17,044 bases of DNA from a bacterium (GTDB lineage: Bacteria; Cyanobacteriota; Vampirovibrionia; Gastranaerophilales; JBAXKC01). Made by a program: the position numbers and the translations under genes. A model generated the notes under the pieces. That model was not told the origin of the DNA. It saw only the letters and a list, made by a program, of their open reading frames with translations, and did no database searches. Each line of letters begins with the position of its first letter. Position 1 is the stretch's first letter. This document shows positions 116-15,863 of the stretch, in pieces. The stretch covers positions 1 through 17,044 of the forward strand of contig JBAXKC010000048.1 in NCBI GenBank assembly GCA_037137535.1. Reading direction: 5' to 3'.

Positions 116-1348
116 TTATTTAATATGTTCAAATATTTTAAACATTGGGAGGTACATCCCTACAATAACAGCTCCGACCATACCACCTAAAAAAATCATC
201 ATTATTGGTTCTAGCATAGAAGTAAGTCCTGCTACAGCTGCTTCAACTTCCTGGTCGTAAAAGTCTGCTATTTTTTCCATCATTGCATCAAGTTCTCCGG
301 TTTCTTCACCTACAGAAATCATTGATACTACCATAGGAGGAAAGGCTTTCGAGCTTTCTAACTGAGTTGAAATCAACCCGCCCTGTTTTACTTCTTCATT
401 TACGCTTCTTATAATTGAGGCTATGTAAGTGTTGCCTGATGCTTCTTCCACAATATCTAAGGAGTATAGGATTGGAACACCGCTTTTTATTAGAGTTCCC
501 AGCGTTCTTGTAAATCTTGCTACTGCAAGTTTTCTTAAAAGTGGACCTAAAATAGGAACATTTAATATGAATTTATCAAAATTAAATCGAATTTTAGGTA
601 TGGAATAAAGTTTTTTTAATCCAAAAACAGTACAGCCTATAAAAACTATTAAAATAAATGATGCCGGTGATCTTAAAAAGTTGCTTATATTTATTAAAAA
701 TTGTGTGTAAGCTGGCAAGTCACTTCCCAGTTTTTGGAAAATACCTGCGAATTGTGGTAATACGAGTGTTAACATTACATAAAATATTATCATCGCAAAA
801 ATAGATACAACTGTCGGATATGCTAAAGCTGATTTTACTTTGTCGCTTAATCTTGCTCTATCTTCCATAAATTTTGCTATTCTGTTTAAAACATCATCAA
901 GAACACCGCCTGTTTCGCCTGCTCTGATCATACTGACAAACAGCGTATCAAATGTTTTTGGATGTTTAGCAAAAGAATCGGATAAGTTTATGCCTTGTTC
1001 TACATCGGATTTTACTTCATTTAGTATTTTTACAAGCATGGGATTTTCTGCTTGAGCTGCCATAATCGTTAAAGAACGCATCATTGCAACTCCTGAATTT
1101 ACCAGAGCAGAATATTGACGGCAAAAGACAACAAGATCTTTTAATCCTACTCCTGAAAGCCCACCTAAAATTCCATCAAGTTCAAAATCAAGAACAGTTT
1201 TTTTCTTTTCTTTATTTTCACTTATTTCAATAACCCAAAGACCTTTATCCACCAATAAAGAAACAGCTGTTTTTTCATTATCGGCAAGGATATTATTCTG
1301 GACTAAATTTCCCTTTTTATCTCTGGCTTTGTATTGAAATTGGGGCAT
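116..1348 (-). CDS. pilC: Type IV pilus inner-membrane platform protein PilC (GspF family)
   Basis: 410 aa. N-terminus MPQFQYKARD. Two GspF repeats (IRAGETGGVLDDVLNRIA; ISVGEETGELDAMMEKIADFY). C-terminal LEP...MYLPMF. GGAG SD upstream of the ATG. Directly downstream of pilB-pilT. Confidence 0.96.
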   Translation of the reverse strand: MPQFQYKARDKKGNLVQNNILADNEKTAVSLLVDKGLWVIEISENKEKKKTVLDFELDGILGGLSGVGLKDLVVFCRQYSALVNSGVAMMRSLTIMAAQAENPMLVKILNEVKSDVEQGINLSDSFAKHPKTFDTLFVSMIRAGETGGVLDDVLNRIAKFMEDRARLSDKVKSALAYPTVVSIFAMIIFYVMLTLVLPQFAGIFQKLGSDLPAYTQFLINISNFLRSPASFILIVFIGCTVFGLKKLYSIPKIRFNFDKFILNVPILGPLLRKLAVARFTRTLGTLIKSGVPILYSLDIVEEASGNTYIASIIRSVNEEVKQGGLISTQLESSKAFPPMVVSMISVGEETGELDAMMEKIADFYDQEVEAAVAGLTSMLEPIMMIFLGGMVGAVIVGMYLPMFKIFEHIK

Positions 1349-1421: not shown

Positions 1422-2504
1422 TTATCTTACTCCGCTGGCTGCATCAAGCATTCTTTTCAGATCATCAGGACGACTTGATTTCATCATTGCATCATCGTAG
1501 GAGATTAATTTCTTCGCATATAAATCTCTTAGAGTTGTCTCAAGAGTCTGCATTTTCATTGCCCCACCTGTTTGTATTGCGGAATATATTTGAGCTGTTT
1601 TACCTTCTCTTATTAAGTTTGCAATAGCTGGAGTAACAATCATGATTTCCTGTGCAAGAACTCTTCCTTTTTTCTGACCGTCAGGACCTAATTTGGGAAT
1701 GAGAGTTTGTGAAAATACAGCTACTAAACTGTTTGATAATTGAATTCTTATTTGTTGTTGTTGTTCAGCAGGGAATACGTCTACAATTCTGTCTACTGTT
1801 TGACTTGCTGAAGAGGTGTGAAGAGTTCCCATTACAAGGTGACCTGTTTCTGCTGCTGTTAAGGCTAAGGAAACGGTTTCCAAGTCTCTTAACTCACCTA
1901 CAAGAATAATATCAGGATCTTCTCTTAATGCGGCTCTTAAAGCATTACTGAAACTTCTTGTATCTTGTCCTAATTCTCTTTGGTGAACTATGCTTCGTTT
2001 AGAACTATGTATAAATTCACAAGGGTCTTCAATTGTTAATATGTGTTCTGAGCGAGTAGCATTTATATGGTCAATCATTGATGCAAGAGTTGTTGATTTA
2101 CCGCTTCCTGTCGGACCTGTAACAAGAATTAGACCTCTTGGTTTTTCTGCAATTTCTCTAACAACAGAGGGAAGTCCTAAATCATCAAATGCAGGAATAT
2201 CAGTGGTAATTGCTCTGAATGCCGCAGCATAGTTACCTTTTTCTTTATAAACATTTACCCTGAAACGGCCAAGTCCATATACGCCATAACTGCAATCAAG
2301 TTCCCAATTTTGTTCCAGATTTCTTCTTTGCTCGTTATTTAACATGCCAAAAATTAGTCTCTGTACATCTTCTTTGGTAAGTGGCGGATGATCTGTTCTT
2401 AATAATTTACCATCAACCCTTATGACAGGCGGTAAGCCTGTTGATATATGTAAGTCGCTTCCATTTTTTTGAAAAACAAGTTGTAGTAAATCTTCTAGTA
2501 TCAT
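1422..2504 (-). CDS. pilT: Type IV pilus retraction ATPase PilT
   Basis: 360 aa. GSDLHI motif, RFRVNVY, Walker A GPTGSGKST, LREDPDIILVGE Walker B, GTLHT His box and AIANLIRE (AIRNLIRE-type PilT motif). Start overlaps the pilB stop (TAATG at 2502-2506). Confidence 0.97.
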   Translation of the reverse strand: MILEDLLQLVFQKNGSDLHISTGLPPVIRVDGKLLRTDHPPLTKEDVQRLIFGMLNNEQRRNLEQNWELDCSYGVYGLGRFRVNVYKEKGNYAAAFRAITTDIPAFDDLGLPSVVREIAEKPRGLILVTGPTGSGKSTTLASMIDHINATRSEHILTIEDPCEFIHSSKRSIVHQRELGQDTRSFSNALRAALREDPDIILVGELRDLETVSLALTAAETGHLVMGTLHTSSASQTVDRIVDVFPAEQQQQIRIQLSNSLVAVFSQTLIPKLGPDGQKKGRVLAQEIMIVTPAIANLIREGKTAQIYSAIQTGGAMKMQTLETTLRDLYAKKLISYDDAMMKSSRPDDLKRMLDAASGVR

Positions 2505-4534
2505 TATTCAGAGGTCTCCATATCAAGATTATTTTTAAAACCAAACTCTTTTAGCGAATTAAAACACCAAGGGCATTGTGTCATATCTAATGATATTCCA
2601 CCATTACAATAATTACAATGACTTTCTGTAGATTTGTCCGAGAGTTTAAATCCACATTTTGCACATGATATCCAGCCATCTTCTATCAATACATCACATC
2701 TCGGGCAAGTTTTCTTCAGCTCAAACTGACAAAACGGACATTGATGAAATTCTTCTCCAACAGGTTTTCCACAGGATGGACAAGCTGAATTCACACCATC
2801 TGAAGTAAAGGTTACCCGTATTACTTCATCGAGCGTTGTATAGCCTTCTTTTGCCAGTTCTAAACTGTATTCTAAAAGTGTTCTCATTCCGTGTTGTTGT
2901 GCTGCAAATCTTATTACTGCACTATTAGCACCTCTTGAAATTAAATCTTTAATGTGATCATTGATTTTCATTACTTCATAAGCACCAACTCTGCCTTTAT
3001 ATCCGCTTCCACTACATTTATCACAGCCTTTACCCTTATAATAAGTTTTGTTTCCGATTTTATCTATGCCTAAGTATTTTAATAAACTGTTTTCAGCTTC
3101 ATAGGCTTCTTTACAATTGCCACAAACTCTTCTTAACAGTCTTTGGGCAATTACTCCTATCATAGAGCTGGAAATAAGAAATGGTTCTACATCCATTTCC
3201 CTTAATCTCATTATGGAACTCGGGGCATCATTTGTGTGAAGTGTGGTAAATACGAGGTGTCCCGTTAAAGCTGCTTCAATAGCTATTTTAGCAGTTTCTT
3301 TATCTCTAGTTTCGCCAACTAGCATTATATCAGGATCTTGACGAAGAAAGGCTTTTAAGATTTTTGCAAAGTCAAGGCCGATTGTTTTATTGACTTCAGA
3401 TTGTGTTATGCCATTAAGGTCGTATTCTATCGGATCTTCCGCTGTTGAAATATTTACATCTACCGTATTTCTTTCACTTAATGCGCTATATAGAGTTGTC
3501 GTTTTTCCGCTTCCTGTCGGGCCTGTTACAAAAACAATTCCGTATGGTCTTTCTATCATTTCTCTTACGAGTTTTAGTGTATCCGCATTTGTTATAATTT
3601 TATCTAAACCTAATGAAATATTAGATTTATCAAGAATCCTCATAACAATTTTTTCTCCGAATTTACTCGGTAAAGTAGACACACGAAAATCTATAAATTT
3701 ATTTGAGGATTTAACACGAATTCTCCCGTCTTGAGGAATGCGTTTTTCTGCTATATCAAGCTCTGACATAATTTTATATCGAGAAATCAGTGCATTCTGA
3801 ATTTTTTTCGGTAAGCTCTTATATATTGTTAAAACACCGTCTAGGCGATATCTTACAATTAACTCTTTTTCTCTGGGTTCTATGTGTATATCACTTACAC
3901 CTTTTTTAATAGCAATTCCGAGAATACTGTTAGCAATTTGAATTATAGGTGCATCTTGACCTGAATCACTTAAATCTGCAACATCAAAATTATCTTCTTT
4001 GCCTTCAATAAGATCAATTCCCATTGAAGAAATAAGTTCATCAGCATCTTGTAATACTTCATCTGTATTTTCATCTTTTTTGGGAAAAACTGCTTCGGTA
4101 AATTTTATAAAGTCATCTAATAAAATTACATTTTTTTTGATTTTAACGTCTTTAAAATCTTTAAGTCTGTATTTTATTTCTCTTTCAGCATTTATATTAT
4201 CGGGTTCTACCATTGCAAAAGTAAAAAGATATCCACTTCTGCTTATAGGTATAATTTTATGATTAATTATAGTTTCTACGGGAAAAATACTTAAAAGCTC
4301 ATGATTTGGTTCAAATTGTTGCAAATTAAAGAAGCTTACCCCAAAATGAAGCTCTAAAGTTGCTTTAAGATTAATAAAGAACTCTTCTTTTTCAGCAAAC
4401 CCTTTTTCGCTGACAATATCTATAATATGCTTGGACGTTATTGATTTTTCTTTATAGACTGAATTCAGCTCATCTTCTGTTAAAATTTGAGCATCTAAAA
4501 TTAGTTCGTATAGCATGTCTTTTTGAGTAGACAT
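2504..4534 (-). CDS. pilB: Type IV pilus assembly ATPase PilB (GspE/PulE family) with a C-terminal multi-zinc-ribbon extension
   Basis: 676 aa. SDIHIEP, EKRIPQDGR, Walker A GPTGSGKTT, EDPIEY, LRQDPDIMLVGE, TLHTND and the tetracysteine loop CGNC...CDKC. Six extra CxxC motifs at aa ~585-657. Confidence 0.95.
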   Translation of the reverse strand: MSTQKDMLYELILDAQILTEDELNSVYKEKSITSKHIIDIVSEKGFAEKEEFFINLKATLELHFGVSFFNLQQFEPNHELLSIFPVETIINHKIIPISRSGYLFTFAMVEPDNINAEREIKYRLKDFKDVKIKKNVILLDDFIKFTEAVFPKKDENTDEVLQDADELISSMGIDLIEGKEDNFDVADLSDSGQDAPIIQIANSILGIAIKKGVSDIHIEPREKELIVRYRLDGVLTIYKSLPKKIQNALISRYKIMSELDIAEKRIPQDGRIRVKSSNKFIDFRVSTLPSKFGEKIVMRILDKSNISLGLDKIITNADTLKLVREMIERPYGIVFVTGPTGSGKTTTLYSALSERNTVDVNISTAEDPIEYDLNGITQSEVNKTIGLDFAKILKAFLRQDPDIMLVGETRDKETAKIAIEAALTGHLVFTTLHTNDAPSSIMRLREMDVEPFLISSSMIGVIAQRLLRRVCGNCKEAYEAENSLLKYLGIDKIGNKTYYKGKGCDKCSGSGYKGRVGAYEVMKINDHIKDLISRGANSAVIRFAAQQHGMRTLLEYSLELAKEGYTTLDEVIRVTFTSDGVNSACPSCGKPVGEEFHQCPFCQFELKKTCPRCDVLIEDGWISCAKCGFKLSDKSTESHCNYCNGGISLDMTQCPWCFNSLKEFGFKNNLDMETSE

Positions 4535-6358
4535 TTAGATTCCCTTATCCAAAACTACCAAAACATTTTTAATTGTATTTTCAAAAGTCATAAGAGAAGT
4601 TCCCTCTATTATAAAAATAGCTAGTTTATCTTCAATCTTTTTTATAACTAATGATTTACTTTTCTCAAAAATAATAACTGATTCAAGCGGCTGAGTTTGT
4701 ATGTTAATAACAAATATCGCTAAATTATCAAAAATAGAAGATGAGATGGAAGCTATTTTCTTTAATTCTTCGTCCTTTTCTTCGTTATTTTCATTAGTAT
4801 CTACAAATAATGCAGCCATTACTTCGTCATTAATAAGTAATGATTCTATTTCTATATTCTCTAAACTTTTTGCCTTCAGTATTTCAGAAATTTCAGAAGT
4901 TTTAAAGTTATTGTTATCAGCTATTTCAAGAGCATAAATTTTATCCTTTGATAAATTTAATAATATTGATGATGTTGTAGTATTAAAAATTATATTATCA
5001 ATACTATTAAATGCCAGTTGTGATACATAATTCTGCACAGTCATAAAGGCATGTGCCGCTACTGCACCAATAGTTTGTTCAAGGTGTAAGTTTCCTATAT
5101 TGCTTTTTAAAATAAACCCGCTCTTATCAATTAAAGAAACTGTTGTTACCTTTGAGCAAATTTCTTTGATTTTAGAGAAAATCTCGTTAGATTGGTTACC
5201 TGCTTCTACAGAAACTATATTTGTCCTGAAATTACCGGCATGTCCAATGGATCCAAGTTCAATAAGGTTTTCAATATCTCGTTCATTTACTATTAATTTT
5301 CCGATAGAGGTTATTTTACCTTCTTTTTCTTCTTTTCTATCGCTTAGATTGTTTGCCAGTCTTATATTTTCAGGTATAAACTGAAATGGAGCTGACTCTT
5401 TCACTTCATCTATGCCAAATTTTATTTGTTTTTTTACTGATAATTTATCATCTTCCATTTTGATTTCGGGTAAATCACCAAGATTTCCTTCAAACATTGA
5501 GTTAATATCTTCATTAATTATAGGTTTAATTGTTTCTTCTTCTGTTTTCTCTTGATAGTCCCATTCAGAAGTAAATATGTCTTCATTGAGAGGTGTTCCT
5601 GAAAGAGTAGGGATTGTAGCGTTTGTTGGCTCTGTTGTTTGAGCCTTTGTATCACTCAGTTCATAGTGTTCTTCAAAGAAATTATTCAGTTCTTCTTCTT
5701 TTTCGGGGTTTTCTTCTTTTTGTTTCATCGCAGAAGTTATTTCTTCTAAACCTACAGGCATTCCTAAATCAGGTCTATTTAAACCATCCGGTTTTTTAGC
5801 TATAAGTTCAGAACTTTTTATAATTTCTTCTTTAGGCTCTTCTTTAATTATAGAATCATTAATATCAAGTTGAGGTTGTATTTCTTCTTCGATTATTTCT
5901 GATTCAATTTCAATCTTATTGGTTGTTTCTGTTTCTTCTATTATAAGGGTTTGAGCTGGTTTATTGCTTTTTGTATTAATGGTTATGTTGTCTTTTACCA
6001 GTTCAGCCGTAATACATCCCGCTAAAACAGAGAATGCAAAGGTTGCGTAGTTTAATTTGAAGTCTATTGAATTAATAAGCCCTATGGCTTCTAATTTTAA
6101 TAAGGCACTGAGTATATTGGCTGTAAATAACATGAATCCTGAAACGATAAATCCTAATAATGAAAATAGGATGATTTCAAGGGTAGTTTTTTTTGAGTAT
6201 CTTATAAAATTTATTATGCAAAAAAGACTGATGTAGCCAACTATAATAACAGGTAGAGGTGTAATAATGTTGAAAGGACAAATTTTATCTATAAATATTG
6301 ATAGAATTCCCATTATTATACTGGATGAAAAAATTATTATCAGTTTTTTATTATTCAT
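4535..6358 (-). CDS. Membrane protein: ~4 N-terminal TM helices, acidic linker, C-terminal Roadblock/LC7 (MglB-like) domain plus a probable degenerate second copy
   Basis: 607 aa. Four hydrophobic stretches in aa 1-120, then an E/D/P-rich linker. aa ~392-480 read VTTVSLIDKSGFILKS...EQTIGAVAAHAFMTVQNYVSQL...IDNIIF, a Roadblock pattern. aa ~503-607 show a similar pattern (VMAALFVD...IASISSSIFDNL...LESVII). The stop TAA abuts the pilB ATG. Confidence 0.72.
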   Translation of the reverse strand: MNNKKLIIIFSSSIIMGILSIFIDKICPFNIITPLPVIIVGYISLFCIINFIRYSKKTTLEIILFSLLGFIVSGFMLFTANILSALLKLEAIGLINSIDFKLNYATFAFSVLAGCITAELVKDNITINTKSNKPAQTLIIEETETTNKIEIESEIIEEEIQPQLDINDSIIKEEPKEEIIKSSELIAKKPDGLNRPDLGMPVGLEEITSAMKQKEENPEKEEELNNFFEEHYELSDTKAQTTEPTNATIPTLSGTPLNEDIFTSEWDYQEKTEEETIKPIINEDINSMFEGNLGDLPEIKMEDDKLSVKKQIKFGIDEVKESAPFQFIPENIRLANNLSDRKEEKEGKITSIGKLIVNERDIENLIELGSIGHAGNFRTNIVSVEAGNQSNEIFSKIKEICSKVTTVSLIDKSGFILKSNIGNLHLEQTIGAVAAHAFMTVQNYVSQLAFNSIDNIIFNTTTSSILLNLSKDKIYALEIADNNNFKTSEISEILKAKSLENIEIESLLINDEVMAALFVDTNENNEEKDEELKKIASISSSIFDNLAIFVINIQTQPLESVIIFEKSKSLVIKKIEDKLAIFIIEGTSLMTFENTIKNVLVVLDKGI

Positions 6359-6401
6359 GTTAAAAAGCCTAACTGGTTAAAAATAAAGGTGCTTAGGCAA
6401 T

Positions 6402-6430
6402 ATGATACTAGATTTTATATTGTTTGGCAA
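6402..6430 (-). promoter_or_regulatory. Putative sigma70-type promoter for the Roadblock gene-pilB-pilT-pilC unit
   Basis: Minus strand TTGCCA (6430-6425), 17 nt spacer, TATCAT (6407-6402), about 43 nt upstream of the ATG at 6358. Confidence 0.45.
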
Positions 6431-6464
6431 ACTGCATAAGTATTAGTTGCTTTATTTTAAAGGC

Positions 6465-8276
6465 TTACAGTCTGCTATTTTCTTTTAAAACTTCTAGTAT
6501 TGATATTTTTGCAATTTTATTCAGATATATTTTTAAAGTTTGTGTCTCATTTATATTTGCGAAAAGATTTTGACTTTTTTCAATAATTTTATAGACAAAC
6601 TCTTCTAATAAGTCTTCATTTTTAGAAAATCTCGGATTACTTCTTACTATTTCTTCAAGAATATCAATATGCTCGTCAGTTAGGTTTAATTCACTTATTA
6701 TATTTTGAAGCTTTGTTATATCTGCTTTATCCTCAACGATGGTTGAAGATTCTGTTTCATAATAAGTAGTTTCAGGCTCTTGTATGCTCTTTGAAGAAGT
6801 TGTAAAACTTTCAGAGTAGCTTGTTGTAACAATTTCTCTGAATTCAGTATTTTCTTTCGGTATAAAGTTTTCGTTATGATTAACTTCGTAAAAATTAAAG
6901 TTATTTGATTGTTGTTTAGGTTCAGCTTCGATGGCATTGTAATTGTTCTCAGAACTATAGTTATCAAAAGAGTCTTGAAGTCTTTCAATCAGAGCATGAT
7001 TTTCTTCCAGATTAAAGGATTTAACTGGATCAATCGGTTTTTCGGCAACAGTACAAGCTGTTTTATTACAGATAACTGTTTTTGACTGATTAAGTCTTGA
7101 CAGAATTTGCTCGGAGGTTTGTTTCCTCTCCTCAATAACGGCTTGCTGTTTTTTATTTGTATTTTCTTGTTCTTTTTTTAATTTATTTAGTAATAATTTT
7201 AGTAATACTATTATTGTTATTAATGCAACAGCTATTCCAGCAAGTAGTGATATTAGAGGATTTTGATTACTGCTTTCAGGTTTTTGATTTTCAGTTTTTA
7301 CTTGAGTTTGATCAAAATTAATAACATTTTTAGTGGGATTTGGCTCAACATTTTCAACAGGAGGTGTTTGTATGTTTTGTTGTGATAATAAATTATCCGC
7401 TTTATTAACAGTTCCTGTATCATTAACTGTTACAGCAGTAGATTTAGTAGCTTCTGCTAAAGTTGGTTTTTCAACAATAGGTTGAGGTGCTATTTTTTTA
7501 ACAGCTTCATTAGGGGTTATTTTTTTTGTTGTTGCTATTAACGATTTATCATTAGTTTTTATTATGTCTTTTGCTACTACTGCTTTAGGTTCAATGGTTG
7601 CTTTTTTAGTTGATTTTATAAGAGGAATTGTTGTTGTAGTAAGTATTAATTTATTGTCTTTTTTTGTTGCAATAACAGATTTTATTGGCTGTTTAAGTGA
7701 CGTATCTATTGTTTTTACAGGTATTATTACTTTAGTCGGTTTAACTGCCTGTGCTATTTTTATCTTTGTTTGTTTAGTCGATACCTGTTTTTTTGTTATA
7801 GCGTTTGATTTTTTATTTGCAATTTGTGACAGGTCTCTATCAATAGTATTATTTTGTGGTGCAACTTTATTATTAACATAGAAATTCATATTATCATTTG
7901 TAGTTTTGATAATAATTTTAGTATATCCGTTGTTTGCGTTTGCTCCTATATAAGGAATAAGTTTGACATCAACATCTTTAACTGATCCATCATTTGACAC
8001 AACTGTCGGCTTTGTTGTAATTGAATGATAAGTTTCAGGTAAGAATATTACATATTCATTATTCTGCATATGTTTAGGATCGAGTTTTATTTTATAAGGT
8101 TTTGAAGAGTATAAAGTAATATTTACTTCTTTATCAACGGGTCTATTTTCAATATTTACTTTTAAAAGTTGATTAGAATATTGGTTTTCTATCGCAAGAG
8201 CTGCGTAGAAATTGAAAGATGACATCATGCTTCCAAGTATAAATATTCTAAATAATTTTTGCTTGTTAAAACCCAT
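6465..8276 (-). CDS. Single-pass membrane protein: signal peptide, AMIN-like periplasmic domain, K/T/P-rich linker, TM helix, acidic cytoplasmic region, C-terminal sigma2-like domain
   Basis: 603 aa. Signal peptide probably ends ...YAALA|IEN. beta-rich aa ~35-127 (LLKVNI...VNITLY...YVIFLPET...VKDVDV...TKIIIKT) resembles AMIN. TM PLISLLAGIAVALITIIVLL (aa ~340-360) is followed by KLLLNKLKK. aa 530-603 align without gaps to aa 1-74 of the neighbouring sigma factor. Confidence 0.75.
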   Translation of the reverse strand: MGFNKQKLFRIFILGSMMSSFNFYAALAIENQYSNQLLKVNIENRPVDKEVNITLYSSKPYKIKLDPKHMQNNEYVIFLPETYHSITTKPTVVSNDGSVKDVDVKLIPYIGANANNGYTKIIIKTTNDNMNFYVNNKVAPQNNTIDRDLSQIANKKSNAITKKQVSTKQTKIKIAQAVKPTKVIIPVKTIDTSLKQPIKSVIATKKDNKLILTTTTIPLIKSTKKATIEPKAVVAKDIIKTNDKSLIATTKKITPNEAVKKIAPQPIVEKPTLAEATKSTAVTVNDTGTVNKADNLLSQQNIQTPPVENVEPNPTKNVINFDQTQVKTENQKPESSNQNPLISLLAGIAVALITIIVLLKLLLNKLKKEQENTNKKQQAVIEERKQTSEQILSRLNQSKTVICNKTACTVAEKPIDPVKSFNLEENHALIERLQDSFDNYSSENNYNAIEAEPKQQSNNFNFYEVNHNENFIPKENTEFREIVTTSYSESFTTSSKSIQEPETTYYETESSTIVEDKADITKLQNIISELNLTDEHIDILEEIVRSNPRFSKNEDLLEEFVYKIIEKSQNLFANINETQTLKIYLNKIAKISILEVLKENSRL

Positions 8277-8294
8277 TTTTTAATACTCGATTAT

Positions 8295-8873
8295 TTACTT
8301 AATTCCAATATCTTTTAATATTACAAAAACTTTTTTCGCCAGTTCTGTAAGTCTTTTACTTACCTCACTTTGAGAAATTCCAACTTCTTCGGAAATTTGA
8401 AATTGAGTCATTCCTTGGTGGTAACGTAGGTTGAATAATTTTTGATATTCTTTTTCAGGATATTTTTCACTTACAAGAATAACACAATTTTTTATGTGTT
8501 TAATTTCTTCTTTATCAATAATATTTTCTTCTACATTAATTGCAGGATCTTCAATATCAAGAATAAGATCACCTTGATCATCTTTAAGATAAGGTGTTTC
8601 TCTATTTAATGAAACTTCAAGCCTTTTATGGTAGCCATCACGAGTTCTGGTCAGTCTTCCCGAAGATTTCAGCACTTCAAGTATGGCAGAACTTGCAATT
8701 TTATTTATGTATAAGTCAACATTAGCTTTATTATGTAATGAGGACATTACACTATAAGAGCGTTTAAAAGTTTCACTGCAAAAATCTTCAACAAGATCTT
8801 CGTTTCCACTAAATCTTGGGTTTTTTCTGATTATATTTTCGATTAAATAGCGATATTCTTGTGTTAATTCCAC
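8295..8873 (-). CDS. Small sigma-70 family (ECF-sized) RNA polymerase sigma factor
   Basis: 192 aa, GTG start. sigma2-like NEDLVEDFCSETF and YINKIASSAILEVLK. Linker ...SLN...ILDIEDP. sigma4 HTH YQKLFNLRYHQGMTQFQISEEVGISQSEVSKRL. Confidence 0.85.
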   Translation of the reverse strand: MELTQEYRYLIENIIRKNPRFSGNEDLVEDFCSETFKRSYSVMSSLHNKANVDLYINKIASSAILEVLKSSGRLTRTRDGYHKRLEVSLNRETPYLKDDQGDLILDIEDPAINVEENIIDKEEIKHIKNCVILVSEKYPEKEYQKLFNLRYHQGMTQFQISEEVGISQSEVSKRLTELAKKVFVILKDIGIK

Positions 8874-8906
8874 TCTTCTCGTCCACCAAAAGAAAAACTA
8901 CTTGTG

Positions 8907-8934
8907 ATACTAGAACATAATACTAATAATTCAA
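8907..8934 (-). promoter_or_regulatory. Possible promoter for the sigma factor gene
   Basis: Minus strand TTGAAT (8934-8929), 16 nt spacer, TAGTAT (8912-8907). A second candidate is TTCATT-17-TATAAT at 8986-8958. The AT-rich background weakens both. Confidence 0.3.
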
Positions 8935-9005
8935 TCTTATCATACTACATTATTTTCATTATAGACCAAAAGTTCTATAAAATGAAAAAGTAAAATTAAT
9001 TGTAA

Positions 9006-11966
9006 TTAAAGATCAATCACACTGTTAATCTTGATATAAGCTTTTTTTGTGTCTACTTTCGGCATTTTTGTGTAAGAGAAACTTTCTTTAATAGTTTTTA
9101 ACATTATTTGATCAACTTCCTCAGACCCACTTGATTGTCTTATTGCTGAATATTTTAAGTTTCCGTCAAGATCAAAAATCAGCATCACTTTTACTTTGTT
9201 ATTTGTTGCTTGCGTCTTTGCGGCTACCAATGACTTAGAAAGGGAAAATTTCAACATTTGTCCTGTAAGTAGTAAATAGCTTTTTAGTCTTTCATTTGAT
9301 CCCATTGATTGACCTATTTCCCACTTTACGTCATCAATTCTCACTTTTTCATATTTATTTTCAAGTGCTTTTGCTAATGCACTTGAGGTTTTAATTTGCT
9401 GATTTTGTTTTGACTTATTATTTACAGGCTGCATCTGCTGATTTAAAGTAGGATTGCCCATTCCTTGATGTGAAATAGGTTGTCCCATCATATTTGGAGC
9501 AGGTGGTGTTGAATTATTTGGTAGATTATGAGAAGGCGCAGCGGCCATATTGGGTGGCATTGAGTTATTTGGCATATTTGGAGGTGTATTATTCATGTTT
9601 GGTGGCATGTGATTTTCTGGGCTTGGTGGTATTGAATTATTTTGCATCATTGGTTGCGTTGCCGTCATGTTTGGTTGTATTGGTTGTTGCATATTACTTT
9701 CAGCTTGATTCTTAGTCATATTATTATAGAAATTAACTGCTGCAAAACCGCTTAAGGTTAGAATTCCTATTGTTGTTGCAGCTATTGCCAATGTTTTTGC
9801 AGGTGATCCTGTTTTATGCTGACTTGTTGAAGGAGTAGCAGTTGTATATTCTTCGTCAAGTACAAAATTAGGGTCATTTAGTTTTTCGTCTACTGCATGC
9901 ATAAAGTCATCATGGCTTTCATATTCGTCAATTGAGCCATACCCCTCAATCTCTCCATTGGAGCTAGTCGGCATCGCCATTTTGTCATCTGCGACTTCAT
10001 CGTGTAATCCGAAAGACTCAATTGTGTCAACTATTTCTATATCCTCTAATGCAGAGATCATATCATTAAGTTCATTATTTTCTTTACCTGTAACTTCATT
10101 TTTATCTTGTATGTTTTCAATGTCAGTTACTTTTTCAGTATCTAAATTAAGATCTTTTAAGCAAATTTCATCACAGCCGTTTAGTTCTACTACCTTAACA
10201 ACTTCTTTATCCAGCTCTATATCTCTTTCAATGGCATCTAATACTTCATTATTGTATTCATCTATGTATTGACCTGGTAGTTCATCCGATAAACTGTCGT
10301 TATAGTTTTTTGCCAATTCATCTATATCTTCTTCGGATAATTCTATATCGTTCAGTTCATCAATATTAATTTCATGTTCTTCAAAGTGGTTTTTTACTTC
10401 ATTGATATCACTTAGTTCTGCATGTTCTTTCATGTTGATACTGTTGTCATAGAACTTATCTTCGCTTAATTCTCCAAGTTCTTCTTGAGGTAAATTAAAG
10501 TCAGGTAATTCATCATGAGTAAGCTCATTATTTTCAAATCTGTTTTCTATTTCAGTTATTTCATCTTCTGAAAATTCCAGGTTATTAAGAGACTTTGTAC
10601 TGGCTTCGAGTTCATCAAATGTATCTATCCTTAAAAAGTTAGCATCGTTTTCTTCATTGATTTCTAATTGATCTGGTGAAGGTAAATTCATGTTGTCATT
10701 ATTTACTTCATTAAATTCAAGATTCAAACCTATATTACTTAATTCTTCATTAGTTATGTCTTTTGGGATATCAATTTCATCTAAAGAATTAGAATCGACT
10801 TCATGATATGTAAAATCCTCTACTTTTAAGAAATCATCATTGTATTCTTCGTTGAGTTCTAATTGATCTAATGAAGGTAAACTCATGTTGTCATCGTTTA
10901 CTTCATTAAATTTAAAATCAGATACTTCTGTAAACTCTGTGTTTTCGTTAATATCTTCAAGTTCAATTTTATTGTTTACGTCTGATAATTCAGGGTTTGT
11001 TTGAATAAGTTCGTTATAGTTGGTTAATTCTTCTTGAGGAGAATTAAGTTCTAATATAGTTTCTTCAACTATTTCGTTTATTTGTTTAAAATCAGAGTTA
11101 TCAAAAGTTGTTAATTCTTCGGTGGCTTCTACTAGTAGCGGTAAACTACTTTCTATATTTATCAGATTATCCACAGGAGGTAAAATCGCAACAGGAGGTA
11201 TGACAGGTGCTGCAATAAAAGTTAAGGCTTCATTGTTTTTTACTTCATCTATAATGTTAGTTGTAATTATTTTTAATAAGTTCTTATCTTTAAATTGTTT
11301 TAATTTTTTATCAAAACTATAGAAATCATTAAATTCACGTCTGCACTTAGGGCATTTTGCCATATGTCTAATAAGAAAATCTTTATCATTGGCGGAAATA
11401 GTGTTATCTATGTATGCTCCAAAAACAGATACAGCTCTTTCATGTTCGGACGGAATACTGAAATAAGTAGGTGTTTTTATTGTGTTTAAAGTGTCTTTAA
11501 GCTCTTCCATCTGGTGAAGCTTTGATTTATCTATAATAATATAGTTTTTATCGCCTCTGACGTTTAATGTTTCTGCTTTTGTTACAAAACCAAGAAATTC
11601 TATTTTAGAGATGGATTTATTTAATTTTGCGGCTATATAAACATCAGGACTAAACCCGAAGAAAATATGATTTCTTGGTATTAATAAAGAAGAACATTCT
11701 TCTCCTACCATTGTTCTAATATCAATTTTCTTTTCGTTAACAACAATGTCTGCAACATCATATTTGTCTAAAAATATCGGACAAGAAGAAAAAGATTCTG
11801 AATTGTTTGCATTTAATCCGTTATTCTTTGCATATTTAGAGAATGCATTAACTGAAATCATTGAAACGTAAGCACGTTTTCTGCTTTTTTCAGACTCAAG
11901 CTCTGAAATTAGTTGCTTTATTGTATTTTTATTTTGTTCATTGATTTCAATTATTGCGGCAGACAT
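9006..11966 (-). CDS. Putative trans-envelope anti-sigma factor: DUF1822-like domain, ZAS zinc finger, acidic linker, TM helix, Pro-rich linker, TonB/TolA C-terminal-like domain
   Basis: The ORF track starts at GTG 11978, but ATG 11966 has a GAGG SD upstream (986 aa). Numbering from 11978: DVADI...IDIR...IP...YIAAKL...EFLGFV (DUF1822-like). H179-x25-H205xxxC209xxC212 with preceding AYIDNTIS. TM LAIAATTIGILTLSGFAAV (aa ~730-750). C-terminal VKVMLIFDLDGNLKYSAIRQSSGSEEVDQ. Confidence 0.78.
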   Translation of the reverse strand: MSAAIIEINEQNKNTIKQLISELESEKSRKRAYVSMISVNAFSKYAKNNGLNANNSESFSSCPIFLDKYDVADIVVNEKKIDIRTMVGEECSSLLIPRNHIFFGFSPDVYIAAKLNKSISKIEFLGFVTKAETLNVRGDKNYIIIDKSKLHQMEELKDTLNTIKTPTYFSIPSEHERAVSVFGAYIDNTISANDKDFLIRHMAKCPKCRREFNDFYSFDKKLKQFKDKNLLKIITTNIIDEVKNNEALTFIAAPVIPPVAILPPVDNLINIESSLPLLVEATEELTTFDNSDFKQINEIVEETILELNSPQEELTNYNELIQTNPELSDVNNKIELEDINENTEFTEVSDFKFNEVNDDNMSLPSLDQLELNEEYNDDFLKVEDFTYHEVDSNSLDEIDIPKDITNEELSNIGLNLEFNEVNNDNMNLPSPDQLEINEENDANFLRIDTFDELEASTKSLNNLEFSEDEITEIENRFENNELTHDELPDFNLPQEELGELSEDKFYDNSINMKEHAELSDINEVKNHFEEHEINIDELNDIELSEEDIDELAKNYNDSLSDELPGQYIDEYNNEVLDAIERDIELDKEVVKVVELNGCDEICLKDLNLDTEKVTDIENIQDKNEVTGKENNELNDMISALEDIEIVDTIESFGLHDEVADDKMAMPTSSNGEIEGYGSIDEYESHDDFMHAVDEKLNDPNFVLDEEYTTATPSTSQHKTGSPAKTLAIAATTIGILTLSGFAAVNFYNNMTKNQAESNMQQPIQPNMTATQPMMQNNSIPPSPENHMPPNMNNTPPNMPNNSMPPNMAAAPSHNLPNNSTPPAPNMMGQPISHQGMGNPTLNQQMQPVNNKSKQNQQIKTSSALAKALENKYEKVRIDDVKWEIGQSMGSNERLKSYLLLTGQMLKFSLSKSLVAAKTQATNNKVKVMLIFDLDGNLKYSAIRQSSGSEEVDQIMLKTIKESFSYTKMPKVDTKKAYIKINSVIDL
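9480..9690 (-). repeat. Pro/Asn/Met-rich low-complexity repeats in the predicted periplasmic linker
   Basis: PPNM three times and NNSxPP three times within QNNSIPPSPENHMPPNMNNTPPNMPNNSMPPNMAAAPSHNLPNNSTPPAPNMM. Confidence 0.7.
10650..10912. repeat. Intragenic direct repeat, two 68-nt copies with a 195-nt (65-aa) period
   Basis: 10650-10717 versus 10845-10912, 7 mismatches in 68 nt by hand alignment. Encodes FNEVNNDNMNLPSPDQLEINEE and FNEVNDDNMSLPSLDQLELNEE. Confidence 0.88.
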
Positions 11967-12038
11967 TATTATCCTCACTTTTAAATAGTTATTAATCCTT
12001 CTATTATTATAGAGAACACATGACTAAAAATTATTCCA

Positions 12039-12113: not shown

Positions 12114-13916
12114 ATGAAAAGAGTTAAACAGTTATCAGAAAATCTTATAAATCAGATTGCAGCAGGTGAAGTAATTGAAAGACCTGCTTCGGTTGTAAAA
12201 GAATTAATAGAAAATTCAATTGACGCAGGGGCCTATAAAATTGAAATAGAAATATCGAATGAGTGTAGAAACATCAGAATTGCAGATAATGGTTCGGGGA
12301 TTCATAAAGATGATTTAAAGTTGGCCTTCTCAAGGCATGCTACCAGTAAAATATACTCTCAAGATGATTTATGGCGTATCTCTTCATTAGGGTTTCGTGG
12401 GGAAGCTCTTGCCAGTATAAGTTCAGTTGCAAAAGTCAGTTGTCTTTCGAGGACAGCCGATTCAGCAGTCGGTTATAAAGTTATTTGCGAAAATTCTAAT
12501 ATAGAAATATCTGAAACAGGTTGTTCAATTGGCACGATAATGGATATTAAAGACCTTTTTTATAATGTGCCGGCAAGAGTTAAATTTTTAAAAAAAGCAC
12601 AGACGGAATTTGCTTATATCGCTGAAACTATTGAATCTACAGCATTGGCCAATCCCCATGTTGCAATAACACTAATTTATAAAGGTAATACTGTAATAAA
12701 AACATCGGGTAACATTGATTTAAAAGAAACTATTTCTGAAATATTTTCAAAAGAGTTGTTAAATGAACTTTTTGAAGTTAATAAACTTGACGAGCCTTTT
12801 AAATATTATGTTAATGGATATGTCAGCACCCCTTCTTATACACGAGGAAATAGAAAAAGCTATTACGTTTTCATTAACGGAAGAAGCGTAAAATGTCAGT
12901 TTATCTCAAAATCTATTGATAATGCTTATAGAGATTTAATTCCATCGGGGAGATTTCCTTTTGTTGTGATTAATCTTTCTGTACCGCCAAATGAGATTGA
13001 TGTAAATGCTCACCCGACAAAAAAAGAAATAAGATATGCTAATACAAATCAAGTTTTCGGCTTTATTTATGCAGCAATAAAACAGGCTGTCGAAAGTGGA
13101 TTACGTGGAACTTCAAATAGATTGTTACCAACATCTGACGATACTTTTGAAACATTGGAAAAAACTGAGAATATAACCTTTGTAAAAACTTTTGAGCCTG
13201 ATTATTCTCAAAATAGTATAAGTTTTAATTTTGATTCTTTTAAGGAGAAAAATTCTTATCAAGTTGAAGAAGTTCAGGCTGCTGTTGATTTTTATAAACC
13301 TATAGCTGAAATAGTAAGTCCTAAAGAGTTTTATCAGTTTAAAGAAACAGAAATTATTGAAAAACCTAAGATAATAGGACAATTTCATAATACATATATT
13401 TTAATTGAAGAGTCTGACGGTTTTTCTATAATTGATCAGCATATTGCCCATGAACGGACAATTTACGAGCAGTTAAAACAAAAACGTCAGTTAGCCAGTC
13501 AATTAATAATTTCAACGCAGGAAATAGGTTTAAATTATTCTGATTTTTCTAAGCTACTGGATAATAAAAATTTACTTGCTGATTTTGGCATAGAATTTGA
13601 AGAAATTGGTAATAATAAAATAATTTTAAGAAAAATTCCTCAAATTTTATCTAATGAGCCTCACGATGAAATAATTTCTAGTATTTTAGAGGCTATGAGT
13701 CATGATATTCAATCGATTGAGAATGAAATATTAATTTCTATTTCTTGTAAAAGTGCGGTAAAGGCAAATGAAAAACTGCCTATTCCTCAAATGGAAAGAC
13801 TTATCCAAGATTGGCAAAATACTCCAAATAATCAGACTTGCCCTCATGGTAGAGTAATAAGCCATAAAATATCACTTAAAGAAGTAGCTGGGTATTTTGG
13901 TCGTTTTGAAAAATAA
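12114..13916 (+). CDS. mutL: DNA mismatch repair endonuclease MutL
   Basis: 600 aa. NQIAAGEVIERPASVVKELIENSIDAGA, DNGSGI, RHATSKI, GFRGEALASI and DVNAHPTKKEIR. Endonuclease motifs DQHIAHERTIYE, SCK, CPHGR and FGR. Confidence 0.98.
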   Translation: MKRVKQLSENLINQIAAGEVIERPASVVKELIENSIDAGAYKIEIEISNECRNIRIADNGSGIHKDDLKLAFSRHATSKIYSQDDLWRISSLGFRGEALASISSVAKVSCLSRTADSAVGYKVICENSNIEISETGCSIGTIMDIKDLFYNVPARVKFLKKAQTEFAYIAETIESTALANPHVAITLIYKGNTVIKTSGNIDLKETISEIFSKELLNELFEVNKLDEPFKYYVNGYVSTPSYTRGNRKSYYVFINGRSVKCQFISKSIDNAYRDLIPSGRFPFVVINLSVPPNEIDVNAHPTKKEIRYANTNQVFGFIYAAIKQAVESGLRGTSNRLLPTSDDTFETLEKTENITFVKTFEPDYSQNSISFNFDSFKEKNSYQVEEVQAAVDFYKPIAEIVSPKEFYQFKETEIIEKPKIIGQFHNTYILIEESDGFSIIDQHIAHERTIYEQLKQKRQLASQLIISTQEIGLNYSDFSKLLDNKNLLADFGIEFEEIGNNKIILRKIPQILSNEPHDEIISSILEAMSHDIQSIENEILISISCKSAVKANEKLPIPQMERLIQDWQNTPNNQTCPHGRVISHKISLKEVAGYFGRFEK

Positions 13917-14020: not shown

Positions 14021-15133
14021 ATGATCAAGCTTGCCTCTAAAATATTTTTAATAGCTTTATGTATTGTAGGCATAGGTTTTTCAGCTGATGCAAAACCTAA
14101 AAACAAGTCTAAGGCTAAAGAAATTATTTTGCCTGCTCAATATAGGTATAAGTCTATTAATTCTAACGGCATGCCTGCGGGTAAACTTTTCTGGAAGTAC
14201 AAACTTGAAGAGACTATAACTTCTGCTCCTGCCTTTTCGGAAGAAAAACTTTATGTTGCTGATAAAAGCGGTAGGATCTATTGTTTTAACGCTAAAAATG
14301 GTGAGTTGTTGTGGACTGATTCAATTGGTGAAAAACTATCAGATTCTTCTCCTGATATCAGTCAAAAAATATTATACATAGGCACAGAGTCAGGTAAACT
14401 TTGGCAATTAAACTTGCAAAACGATAAAAAATCTCATTATTATCAAGTGAAAGAAGCCATTAAATCATCACCAGAATCAATTAAAAACAAAGTTTATTTT
14501 ACTTCTACCGATAAAAAGATTTATGCGCTTAACACTCAGAATAATACATTAATTTGGTCTTATAAAACAGGAAATATTATTGAAGCTTCGCCCACTATAT
14601 ATCAAGATTATGCTTATGTGGGAAGTTATGACGGTAAATTATATGCTTTCAATGCTTATGAGGAAAAATGCTTGTGGACTTTTCAGACGGAAGCACCGAT
14701 TGTAGCTAAAGCAATATATTCAGACGGAAAAGTTTTTATAGGCTCTACTGATAAATACATTTATGCAATTGATGCTGAAAAAGGCACAATGAAGTGGAAA
14801 AAGAAACTTCTTGGTGTCGCTGCTTCAAGTCCTGCTTATTATAATAATATGGTTTTTATAGCTGATAGCAGAGGCATTGTCTATGCTGTCAATGCTGATA
14901 ACGGCTCGGCTGTCTGGCAATATAAAACAGACGGCTCAATCTTTCAATCGCCTGCTATAGCAAATGGTGTGCTTTATGTTCCATCAGGCGACGGATATTT
15001 ATATGCTTTTAATGTTCGTAATGGCAGTATAAACTGGAAATATAAGACTAATGACGTGCCATTTTCTCCTATTGTGAATAATGGAGTTGTTTATTTTGGA
15101 TCGGGGGACGGATATATATATGCGCTCAAATAA
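14021..15133 (+). CDS. Secreted PQQ-like (BamB-like) beta-propeller repeat protein
   Basis: 370 aa. Signal peptide probably ends ...FSADA|K. About eight ~40-aa repeats of the form W.(Y/F)KT...I.SSP.....(V/L)Y.GS.DG.LYA.NA..G. Confidence 0.88.
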   Translation: MIKLASKIFLIALCIVGIGFSADAKPKNKSKAKEIILPAQYRYKSINSNGMPAGKLFWKYKLEETITSAPAFSEEKLYVADKSGRIYCFNAKNGELLWTDSIGEKLSDSSPDISQKILYIGTESGKLWQLNLQNDKKSHYYQVKEAIKSSPESIKNKVYFTSTDKKIYALNTQNNTLIWSYKTGNIIEASPTIYQDYAYVGSYDGKLYAFNAYEEKCLWTFQTEAPIVAKAIYSDGKVFIGSTDKYIYAIDAEKGTMKWKKKLLGVAASSPAYYNNMVFIADSRGIVYAVNADNGSAVWQYKTDGSIFQSPAIANGVLYVPSGDGYLYAFNVRNGSINWKYKTNDVPFSPIVNNGVVYFGSGDGYIYALK

Positions 15134-15863
15134 AATTGTTGTTGTGATACCTGCCAGATACGCTTCTACTCGATTACCGGGGAAGCCATTGCTTGAAGTT
15201 GATAATAAACCTATTATTCAATGGGTTTATGAGAGAGCAAGCCGGTCAAAACTTGCAGGTAAGGTTATTGTCGCTACTGATGAATATAAAATATATAATG
15301 CAGTTAAAGCCTTTGGAGGTAATGTTGTCATGACTTCACCAACCCATAATAGCGGTAGTGATAGAATCTCTGAAGTTGTTCTGAAAGATGCCGAAATAGA
15401 AATTATTGTTAATGTTCAAGGTGATGAACCTTTAATTTCTCCTGAAAGTATTGATAAATCAATTGAAGTTTTATTGAAAAATGATCAAATTGATATATCA
15501 ACATTAATTAGAAAAATTAATGATAAAAACGAAGTGGAGAATCCTAATCTTGTAAAAGTTGTCTTTGATAGTCAAGGCAATGCTTTGTATTTTTCAAGAA
15601 GCCCTATTCCATACGCAAGAAATGAAGAGTATGCAGAATATTATGGACATATTGGGTTATATGCATATAAAAGAGAAAGTTTGCTCAAAATGGTCTCTCT
15701 TGATCAATCTTCCTATGAACTTTCAGAAAGTTTAGAGCAGTTAAGGGCTCTTCAAAACGGCATGAAAATAGGTGTAATCGAAGTCGACTACACCCCTATC
15801 GGTATTGATACCCCTGAAGACTTTGAGAAATTCAAAGAACTTCTTAAAAATAAATTGGTTTAA
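15120..15863 (+). CDS. kdsB: 3-deoxy-manno-octulosonate cytidylyltransferase (CMP-Kdo synthetase)
   Basis: IPARYASTRLPGKPL, VATD, SGSDR, VNVQGDEP, ALYFSRSPIP, HIGLYAY, ESLEQLRAL and GIDTPED. ATG 15120 (MRSNKIVVVIPAR) is preferred over 15081 because the family begins there and a G-rich SD precedes it. It overlaps the upstream gene by 14 nt. Confidence 0.96.
   Translation: MRSNKIVVVIPARYASTRLPGKPLLEVDNKPIIQWVYERASRSKLAGKVIVATDEYKIYNAVKAFGGNVVMTSPTHNSGSDRISEVVLKDAEIEIIVNVQGDEPLISPESIDKSIEVLLKNDQIDISTLIRKINDKNEVENPNLVKVVFDSQGNALYFSRSPIPYARNEEYAEYYGHIGLYAYKRESLLKMVSLDQSSYELSESLEQLRALQNGMKIGVIEVDYTPIGIDTPEDFEKFKELLKNKLV

Follow-up and report, generated by a model that had tools for sequence, protein, structure and literature searches.

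A candidate membrane-anchored copy of sigma region 2 beside an ECF-type sigma/anti-sigma pair in Gastranaerophilales-like Vampirovibrionia

To our knowledge, a single system of sigma mimicry has been described so far, in which the mimic PhyR is a soluble response regulator, and the sigma-like domain of PhyR covers sigma2 and sigma4. In PhyR-NepR-EcfG, mimicry is an established mechanism according to PMC8999054. For anti-sigma factors of class I, a co-evolution analysis in PMC7406223 describes that helix 4 binds sigma regions 2.1-2.2, as the beta-prime clamp helices of RNA polymerase do, and since helix 4 targets these regions, a domain comprising region 2 only would be a sufficient target and therefore a credible competitor. 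Genes for DUF1822 proteins are moreover described beside genes for extracytoplasmic function (ECF) sigma factors in the neighbourhoods of conflict systems of cyanobacteria (Kaur et al., eLife 2021, PMC8195603), and in Synechocystis PATAN response regulators are reported as interaction partners of the pilus motor (10.1101/2021.06.11.447907). Here we describe a locus on contig JBAXKC010000048.1, a stretch of 17,044 nucleotides (nt) that was analysed as a whole and is called the window. It encodes an ECF-type sigma factor between P990, a putative membrane anti-sigma factor, and P603, a membrane protein that ends in a copy of sigma region 2. By analogy with the known mimic, we tentatively read the three genes as a lineage-specific sigma/anti-sigma unit of Gastranaerophilales-like Vampirovibrionia in which the copy would be a decoy competing for the anti-sigma factor, a reading that we regard as possible rather than probable. 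All coordinates are given in Table 1.

The evidence starts with the C-terminus of P603, whose last 74 residues align without any gap to residues 1-74 of the neighbouring sigma factor (42% identity, 70% positives, E 4e-17 in BLASTP). The sigma2 copy that an earlier note on this DNA had seen on an AMIN-transmembrane protein thus stands, as does the distance given there, since 18 nt were measured between the stop codon of the sigma gene and the ATG of P603. From its N-terminus to its C-terminus, P603 consists of a signal-peptide-like stretch, an AMIN-like periplasmic domain, a linker, a transmembrane helix, a cytoplasmic linker and the region-2 copy, and neither Response_reg nor any other Pfam domain was found in it. 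An exhaustive HMMER search with P603 gave 183 relatives at E<=0.001. Among the best 150 of these 183, four carry the copy at their C-terminus, namely P603 of the window, P0002, P0003 and P0005; twelve are free sigma factors that were matched through region 2 alone, and the remaining proteins have only the N-terminal domain in common. A word-based search among proteins of 331-1056 amino acids (aa) for further carriers of the copy had returned the window protein only, and it was the HMMER search that found the others. The copy of P603 is 59, 43 and 44% identical to those of the three other copy-bearing proteins, each time gap-free. In the same order, the values are 32, 24 and 22% for the periplasmic linker and 42, 21 and 30%, with many gaps, for the cytoplasmic linker. 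Because the copy aligns without gaps and is better conserved than the linkers flanking it (21-42%), the comparison argues for selection on the copy, which therefore appears to be under constraint; the blocks GNEDL and YLNKI..ILEVLK are kept in all four copies. A further conserved element of P603 is a cytoplasmic juxtamembrane block with two cysteines at aa ~363-412 (ERKQTSEQILSRL...C-x5-C..., window 7040-7190, minus strand), which is common to the window protein, P0002 and P0003 and is absent in P0005.

Most proteins sharing the N-terminal domain of P603 end differently. A FliO-like C-terminal segment was recognised by Pfam in 17 of the 47 family members scanned, in seven of them at or over the cut-off, and a custom hidden Markov model built from ten such C-termini was applied to 166 proteins with the N-terminal domain. 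Of these, 131 end FliO-like, 4 in the sigma copy and 13 in something else, and 18 are short or partial. Since 131 of 166 end FliO-like and only 4 carry the copy, P603 is, judged by its sequence relatives, derived and rare within a family of AMIN-like/transmembrane/FliO-like proteins of Vampirovibrionia. In the tree of the N-terminal domain, P603, P0002 and P0003 form a clade with a Shimodaira-Hasegawa-like approximate likelihood ratio of 98, and P0005 stands apart, its nearest neighbour being the FliO-type protein of locus L003, a relative discussed below. The gene for this protein lies about 2.5 kb from the sigma gene of L003, which fits a scenario in which a segment of an adjacent sigma gene was captured. 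That the fusion arose twice independently, as the separate position of P0005 would imply, was considered and not adopted, as a single clade is not rejected by the approximately unbiased test (p 0.344). The family as a whole is large and uncharacterised, and its genes are found in varied housekeeping contexts across the 29 loci described below.

The label AMIN, which the earlier note had attached to P603, is carried by the predicted fold and not by sequence. Pfam AMIN (PF11741) matched neither the whole protein at E<=0.1 nor aa 25-170 when E<=10 was allowed, and the P603 family profile found no AMIN match among the PDB sequences. The AlphaFold2 model of aa 20-175, computed from a 70-row alignment, is all-beta with a predicted local distance difference test (pLDDT) of 86.7, and the top and only compact match of Foldseek against the PDB is E. 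coli AmiC (4bin, prob 0.99, root mean square deviation 2.6 A over 97 columns). The E-value of this match is only 0.07, its TM score by query is 0.43, and the aligned range of AmiC is unreported. Presumably it is the AMIN domain, which we take to be the all-beta part of AmiC, that is matched, and according to the model the N-terminal domain of P603 can be called AMIN-like by fold.

The sigma factor itself is recognised by TIGR02937 (sigma70-ECF), whose match exceeds the cut-off and spans aa 3-181, hence sigma2 as well as sigma4, so that the sigma factor claimed in the earlier note can be kept. The single-region models see less of it: Sigma70_r4 reaches 23.2 bits, just below its cut-off of 24.1, and Pfam Sigma70_r2 gives no match to the window protein because region 2 is too divergent. 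Among the 18 members of the sigma family alignment, Sigma70_r2 was matched in 5 (best E 0.0024) and Sigma70_r4 in 10. No named ECF subgroup could be assigned to the window sigma factor, as the best subfamily models stay far under their cut-offs (TIGR02985, 36 bits against 126).

P990 begins at the ATG at 11966; a GGA-rich ribosome-binding site lies in front of this start, which agrees with the N-termini of the homologues. It is built from a DUF1822-like domain, a zinc anti-sigma (ZAS) motif, an acidic linker of about 400 aa, a transmembrane helix, a Pro/Asn-rich spacer and a TonB-like C-terminus, and the whole architecture is found again in P0154 (64% identity), P0155 (50%) and the orthologue in L003. 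The motif, of the form Hx3Cx2C, is matched by zf-HC2 with 24-25.9 bits depending on the query (cut-off 22.2), and its H, C and C are invariant in all 4 homologues. In the window and in L003 alike, the anti-sigma gene is adjacent to an ECF sigma gene; the two genes are 46 nt apart in L003 and 132 nt in the window, and the L003 sigma orthologue matches the window sigma factor at 2e-56. The pairing was examined in this one other genome. Because of the ZAS motif, the adjacency and the recurrence in L003, together with the anti-sigma architecture shared by P0154 and P0155, P990 and the sigma factor being a cognate pair is supported on the sequence level, and the anti-sigma/sigma pair proposed earlier holds in this sense.

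The ZAS protein with a TonB C-terminus, as P990 had been described, is borne out in its ZAS part, as zf-HC2 is over its cut-off, and its C-terminus is TonB-like, with TonB_2 over the cut-off on the C-terminal piece but not on the whole protein; the description had overlooked the DUF1822-like N-terminal domain. This domain is matched by PF08852 with 38-41 bits, covering only positions 1-158 of the 370 in the model, and the L003 orthologue reaches 50 bits. As a lead from predicted models, an Atlas structure search with aa 1-236 gave DUF1822 clusters and in addition a Melainabacteria cluster of 53 members, 89% of which have TonB_2 (TM score 0.73 by query). The locus points to DUF1822, which in cyanobacteria too is encoded beside ECF sigma factors, as a possible sigma-regulatory module. 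For aa 1-163 (window 11478-11966), the Atlas search also lists two clusters of small phage (Uroviricota) proteins that resemble the DUF1822-like domain, with TM scores of 0.49-0.53 by query and 0.70-0.74 by row. At the other end of P990, the C-terminal piece by itself reaches 24.8 bits with TonB_2 (cut-off 22), as against 20.5 bits for the complete protein; TonB_C gives 18.4 bits (cut-off 24.6), and the L003 orthologue has 28.6 bits for TonB_2. TonB couples to ExbB-ExbD by a conserved Ser/His motif in its N-terminal transmembrane anchor. Such an anchor is absent from P990, whose transmembrane segment LAIAATTIGILTLSGFAAV has no His and lies away from the N-terminus, and the Pfam scan of the window proteins found no ExbB or ExbD. 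A second transmembrane helix at aa 247-265 was considered and rejected, since the stretch has many Pro residues and lacks hydrophobicity in the homologues from L003 and P0155. The linker between the anti-sigma domain and the membrane (aa ~300-700, window 9800-11100, minus strand) is very long and acidic, with about 30% D+E; in the L003 orthologue (L003 3300-6000) it has expanded to near-perfect tandem peptide repeats (EEIQQEELIDE...) that are interrupted by a run of N. The opposite topologies that had been predicted for P990 and P603, the two single-pass proteins, fit the counts of hydrophobicity and charge, and by predicted topology the ZAS domain of the one and the sigma copy of the other are on the same side of the membrane.

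The gene order, the domain content, the homology of the copy and its constraint, and the recurrence of the pair are shown by the sequences; by analogy with the known mimic, we infer the following course of binding, competition, envelope signalling, promoter use and co-transcription. With its zinc anti-sigma domain in the cytoplasm, P990 would keep the sigma factor bound at the inner membrane, its TonB-like periplasmic end reaching to a partner in the outer membrane or envelope. P603 would be anchored in the envelope via its AMIN-like domain and show the region-2 copy to the cytoplasm, the copy having possibly arisen when the FliO-like C-terminal domain was swapped for a duplicate of the 5' part of the neighbouring sigma gene. 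As a membrane-tethered, receiver-less sigma mimic, the copy would then vie with the sigma factor for that part of the anti-sigma domain which binds sigma2, and the release of the sigma factor might be tuned by the arrangement of the two envelope-spanning proteins. The unit would drive at least its own operon from a conserved upstream motif, and perhaps P607 and pilB-pilT-pilC would be included in this genome by read-through. A complex predicted for P990 aa 1-260 and the copy (aa 520-603), from alignments of 4 and 18 rows, respectively, reached scores of 0.01 and 0.11, where the mark is 0.32, and speaks neither for nor against binding.

The upstream motif mentioned is a block GGAATAATTTTTA(G/A)TCATGT...CTCTATA that precedes P990 as well as its L003 orthologue. 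The divergent neighbour behind it differs, being mutL in the window and a nucleoside phosphorylase gene in L003. In the window the motif occurs once, and in L003 once at the orthologous place, with two loose matches elsewhere. As its spacing presumably resembles that of ECF-type promoters, the motif is possibly an autoregulated, ECF-type promoter of the pair. Between the seven genes from P990 to pilC, no terminator-like site was found on the coding strand. The generic terminator scan as a whole gave 5 sites against 4.2 from shuffles, none of the three longest intergenic gaps folds as RNA more stably than shuffled controls, and Rfam has no match.

How far the unit is linked to other genes was followed with the P603 family alignment, with which species-representative genomes were scanned. 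This yielded 29 loci (L001-L029), mostly in Gastranaerophilales, Vampirovibrio or Melainabacteria metagenome-assembled genomes (MAGs), and the flanks could be read over at least 4 kb downstream in 25 and at least 4 kb upstream in 19 of them. Several of the host MAGs are titled Gammaproteobacteria, Muribaculaceae or Bacteroidales, which may be due to mislabelled bins. The N-terminal domain gene is present in 29/29 loci, the sigma2 copy on this gene in none (0/29), and the anti-sigma/sigma pair, as orthologues of P990 and the sigma factor, in 1/29, L003, which is the closest relative at 56%. The sigma gene of L003 is followed by a phosphoglucomutase-like gene and then by the FliO-type family member. 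Just downstream of the latter, at L003 12112-12916 (minus strand), csrA and fliW give a flagellar-regulation context. In this synteny survey, which had been suggested as a check, the linkage is thus conserved only in part: the pair recurs in L003 only, and the copy, P607 and pilB/T/C were each found in 0/29 loci.

Several of these observations and some others weigh against the decoy reading or against its extension to the pilus genes. In regions 2.1-2.2, the copy has diverged from the sigma factor (FCSETFKRSY against FVYKIIEKSQ), and an acidic residue kept in 14/14 free sigma factors at the SET/SES/AEA position is K in the window copy and R in P0002, though still E in the copies of P0003 and P0005. 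To judge from the sequences, this divergence could weaken the binding of the copy to the anti-sigma helix and to RNA polymerase. No P607 homologue and no pilB/T/C was found near the family gene in any of the 29 loci, and L003 has no sigma2 copy and no pil genes within 9 kb; since the pair exists there without the copy and without adjacent pilus genes, neither the copy nor the pilus link is integral to it. Furthermore, the upstream motif occurs only once in the window and so does not point to a further promoter, dependent on the sigma factor, in front of P607 or pilB, and a generic promoter scan found 57 sites where 58.1 are expected from shuffles.

These points bear most on the alternative that the genes are neighbours without a joint function, i.e. 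that P990 and the sigma factor form a self-contained envelope-stress pair, the copy of P603 has nothing to do with the anti-sigma factor, and P607 with pilBTC is a separate motor unit. The gene order in L003 and the lack of any locus among the 29 in which the family gene is linked to pilB/T/C or P607 agree with such a separation, and with 132 and 106 nt two of the intergenic gaps are long enough to contain promoters. However, only 18 nt separate the sigma gene from P603, the copy stems from this very sigma family and is conserved, no terminator-like sites interrupt the genes, and L003 retains a family member within 2.5 kb of its sigma gene, so that on balance we consider separate functions unlikely, though they are a serious contender to the decoy. 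We are more doubtful still about the full version of the decoy reading, in which the captured sigma2 decoy of the AMIN-anchored protein acts on the TonB-like ZAS anti-sigma factor as an envelope-geometry-gated switch over pilus motor expression. The link to the pilus tentatively consists of the adjacency in this one window and of a P607 that is, again tentatively, Roadblock/PATAN-like.

The copy might, instead of the anti-sigma factor, bind RNA polymerase at the beta-prime clamp helices and thereby tether or titrate the core enzyme at the membrane, or else rival the sigma factor for it. Regions 2.1-2.2 normally bind these helices according to PMC7406223, and the GNEDL and YLNKI..ILEVLK blocks are retained, but the acidic residue of the free sigma factors is lost to K or R in the window copy and P0002 (though not in P0003 and P0005), and a single membrane-tethered domain set against an abundant enzyme would in our view be stoichiometrically unattractive; polymerase binding is therefore improbable. 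As two-subunit sigma factors such as SigO-RsoA exist, P603 could finally be the pro-form of a split sigma factor whose region 2, complete and placed at the extreme C-terminus after a long flexible linker, is freed by proteolysis to pair with a sigma4-only partner, but this is very improbable, since the window has no sigma4-only gene and the neighbouring sigma factor is complete with a region 2 of its own.

Returning to the gene order on which the pilus extension of the decoy reading depends, the seven co-oriented minus-strand open reading frames (ORFs) are P990, sigma, P603, P607, pilB, pilT and pilC. The first four are spaced by 132, 18 and 106 nt in this order, P607 and pilB adjoin with 0 nt between them, pilB and pilT overlap by 1 nt, and 73 nt lie between pilT and pilC. 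The first four lie directly upstream of pilB-pilT-pilC, as had been noted, with the order confirmed by the ORFs and the pil identities by family models. All three proteins match type IVa pilus motor families, and PilT alone exceeds its NCBIfam cut-off: PilB has 592 bits for TIGR02538, under the equivalog cut-off of 675.65, and PilC 431.7 bits for NF052607 (cut-off 700), both being far above the Pfam cut-offs of T2SSE and T2SSF, respectively. Past its ATPase core, PilB has an extension with double zinc-ribbon motifs (aa 585-662, DZR 30 bits, Zn_ribbon matches), which could be a docking site for regulators.

The gene abutting pilB was correctly placed in the earlier note, as the stop codon of P607 (4535-4537) directly precedes the pilB start at 4534. 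Its description as a transmembrane-Roadblock protein is retained in part. Hydropathy gives several N-terminal membrane helices in place of a single one; behind them come an acidic linker and a C-terminal part some 250 residues long, and Pfam has no match to P607, neither Robl_LC7 (PF03259, none at E<=10 on C-terminal pieces) nor PatA_N, but a low-confidence Atlas model (pLDDT 0.47) resembles Robl_LC7/Roadblock clusters with TM scores of 0.62 and 0.61 by query. The match covers ~200 residues with a feature score of 0.85, a PatA_N cluster is resembled as well, and we take this as a lead only. From this model, the cytoplasmic C-terminus is possibly Roadblock/LC7-like and may be double. An AlphaFold2 model of the same region from a 2-row alignment was unusable (pLDDT 34.5), PDB sequence searches with it and with the sigma factor gave nothing informative, and one homologue of P607 was found, P0152, with 48% identity.

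Table 1. Features of the window with their positions, strands and the basis of each assignment.
Feature	Position	Strand	Basis or remark
pilC platform protein	116..1348	-	T2SSF 220.6 bits, two stretches
pilT retraction ATPase	1422..2504	-	TIGR01420 505.9 bits, cut-off 319.1
pilB-type assembly ATPase, C-terminal double zinc ribbon	2504..4534	-	T2SSE 427 bits, MshEN, DZR
P607, multi-pass membrane protein, 607 aa	4535..6358	-	hydropathy, Atlas structure search, homologue P0152
P603, type I membrane protein, 603 aa	6465..8276	-	BLASTP, hydropathy, HMMER, AlphaFold2 model
Sigma region-2 copy of P603, aa 530-603, predicted cytoplasmic	6468..6689	-	BLASTP against neighbouring sigma factor
Transmembrane helix of P603, aa 341-359	7200..7256	-	hydropathy 3.01; K/R 2 before, 4 after
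AMIN-like beta-sandwich of P603, aa 35-138, predicted periplasmic	7863..8174	-	AlphaFold2 model, Foldseek
ECF-type sigma factor, 192 aa, GTG start	8295..8873	-	TIGR02937 63 bits, cut-off 42.9
P990, putative membrane anti-sigma factor, 986 aa	9006..11966	-	Pfam domains, hydropathy, homologue architecture
TonB-like C-terminus of P990, aa 917-974, predicted periplasmic	9045..9218	-	PF13103 TonB_2
Single transmembrane helix of P990, aa 726-744	9735..9791	-	hydropathy 1.96
ZAS motif region of P990, aa 182-213, H-M-A-K-C-P-K-C	11328..11423	-	PF13490 zf-HC2 25.9 bits, cut-off 22.2
DUF1822-like N-terminal domain of P990, aa 6-158	11493..11951	-	PF08852 41.2 bits, cut-off 25
30-nt motif GGAATAA...CTCTATA, candidate promoter	12008..12037	-	42-71 nt upstream of P990 start
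mutL	12114-13916	+	divergent, upstream of P990

Beyond mutL, the window contains an ORF for a BamB/PQQ-like beta-propeller protein (14021-15133, plus strand), which as called overlaps the ORF of a KdsB-type cytidylyltransferase (15081-15863, plus strand) by 53 nt; the true start of kdsB is probably a later ATG than the one called. A methyl-accepting chemotaxis protein with HAMP and MCPsignal domains (15867-17042, minus strand) reaches the edge of the window and its frame is open to the window end; the ATG listed at 16985 would start this protein within its membrane-proximal part.

In the open-access literature no description was found of a membrane-anchored or region-2-only sigma mimic, of this module or of pilus regulation in Melainabacteria. 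The paper on the re-classification of ECF sigma factors (PMC7826278) has no DUF1822/PF08852 in its supplement and neither Melainabacteria nor pilus in its main text. The parts of the locus can nevertheless be set beside described systems. P607 can be compared with the PATAN/Roadblock pilus regulators and MglB in that, in the low-confidence model, its C-terminus is similar to clusters of Robl_LC7 and PatA_N, and in that its gene directly adjoins pilB; it differs in being embedded in the membrane and in having no receiver domain and no Pfam match to Robl_LC7 or PatA_N. If the pilus link is true, envelope sensing would be tied to motility or attachment in non-photosynthetic relatives of the Cyanobacteria. 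As in the cyanobacterial neighbourhoods (PMC8195603), DUF1822 is encoded beside an ECF sigma factor, but P990 matches only the first 158 of 370 positions of the model and has this part fused to ZAS motif, transmembrane helix and TonB_C, and neither caspase nor EACC2 genes are present in the window. The series of transmembrane helix, Pro-rich periplasmic spacer and TonB-like C-terminal domain in P990 resembles that of TonB, whereas the helix has no His, the N-terminal cytoplasmic part is an anti-sigma domain and ExbB/ExbD genes are missing from the window. TonB-like proteins with cytoplasmic extensions exist in GltJ/GltG of Myxococcus. The GltJ model gives a weak match over the transmembrane helix and spacer of P990 (22.9 bits, far under the cut-off of 450).

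P990 resembles the class I ZAS proteins RsiW and ChrR, as they are presented in PMC7406223: it has an HxxxCxxC motif and is encoded next to a sigma factor of ECF type, its N-terminal part is cytoplasmic, and a single transmembrane helix is followed by an extracytoplasmic sensor part. It differs from them by a DUF1822-like domain of ~160 aa ahead of the motif, by a distance of about 480 mostly acidic residues between motif and membrane, and by a sensor part that is TonB-like. The anti-sigma/sigma core is therefore ordinary in principle, and it is the captured sigma2 copy that is unusual and rare. Two uncharacterised Vampirovibrionia families are defined by the comparison, the AMIN-like/transmembrane/FliO-like proteins and the DUF1822-ZAS-TonB-like anti-sigma factors. 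If the decoy reading is true, the locus would be the first switch by sigma mimicry beyond the PhyR system of Alphaproteobacteria, made of different parts, with a second, independently evolved mimic that comprises region 2 only, is anchored in the membrane and works without phosphorylation input. Mimicry would then be a recurrent solution, and P603 would illustrate how a protein can in nature capture a domain from the gene next to its own. As in PhyR-NepR-EcfG (PMC8999054), a protein with a sigma-like domain homologous to an ECF sigma factor is encoded beside the sigma and anti-sigma factors, and by analogy P603 could free the sigma factor by occupying the anti-sigma factor. The sigma-like domain of P603, homologous to the sigma factor that would be regulated, comprises region 2 only, and P603, which spans the membrane as a type I protein and is AMIN-like in its periplasmic domain, has, according to Pfam, neither a receiver domain nor a kinase input. 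Its putative partner P990 is a large membrane ZAS protein where NepR is small and soluble.

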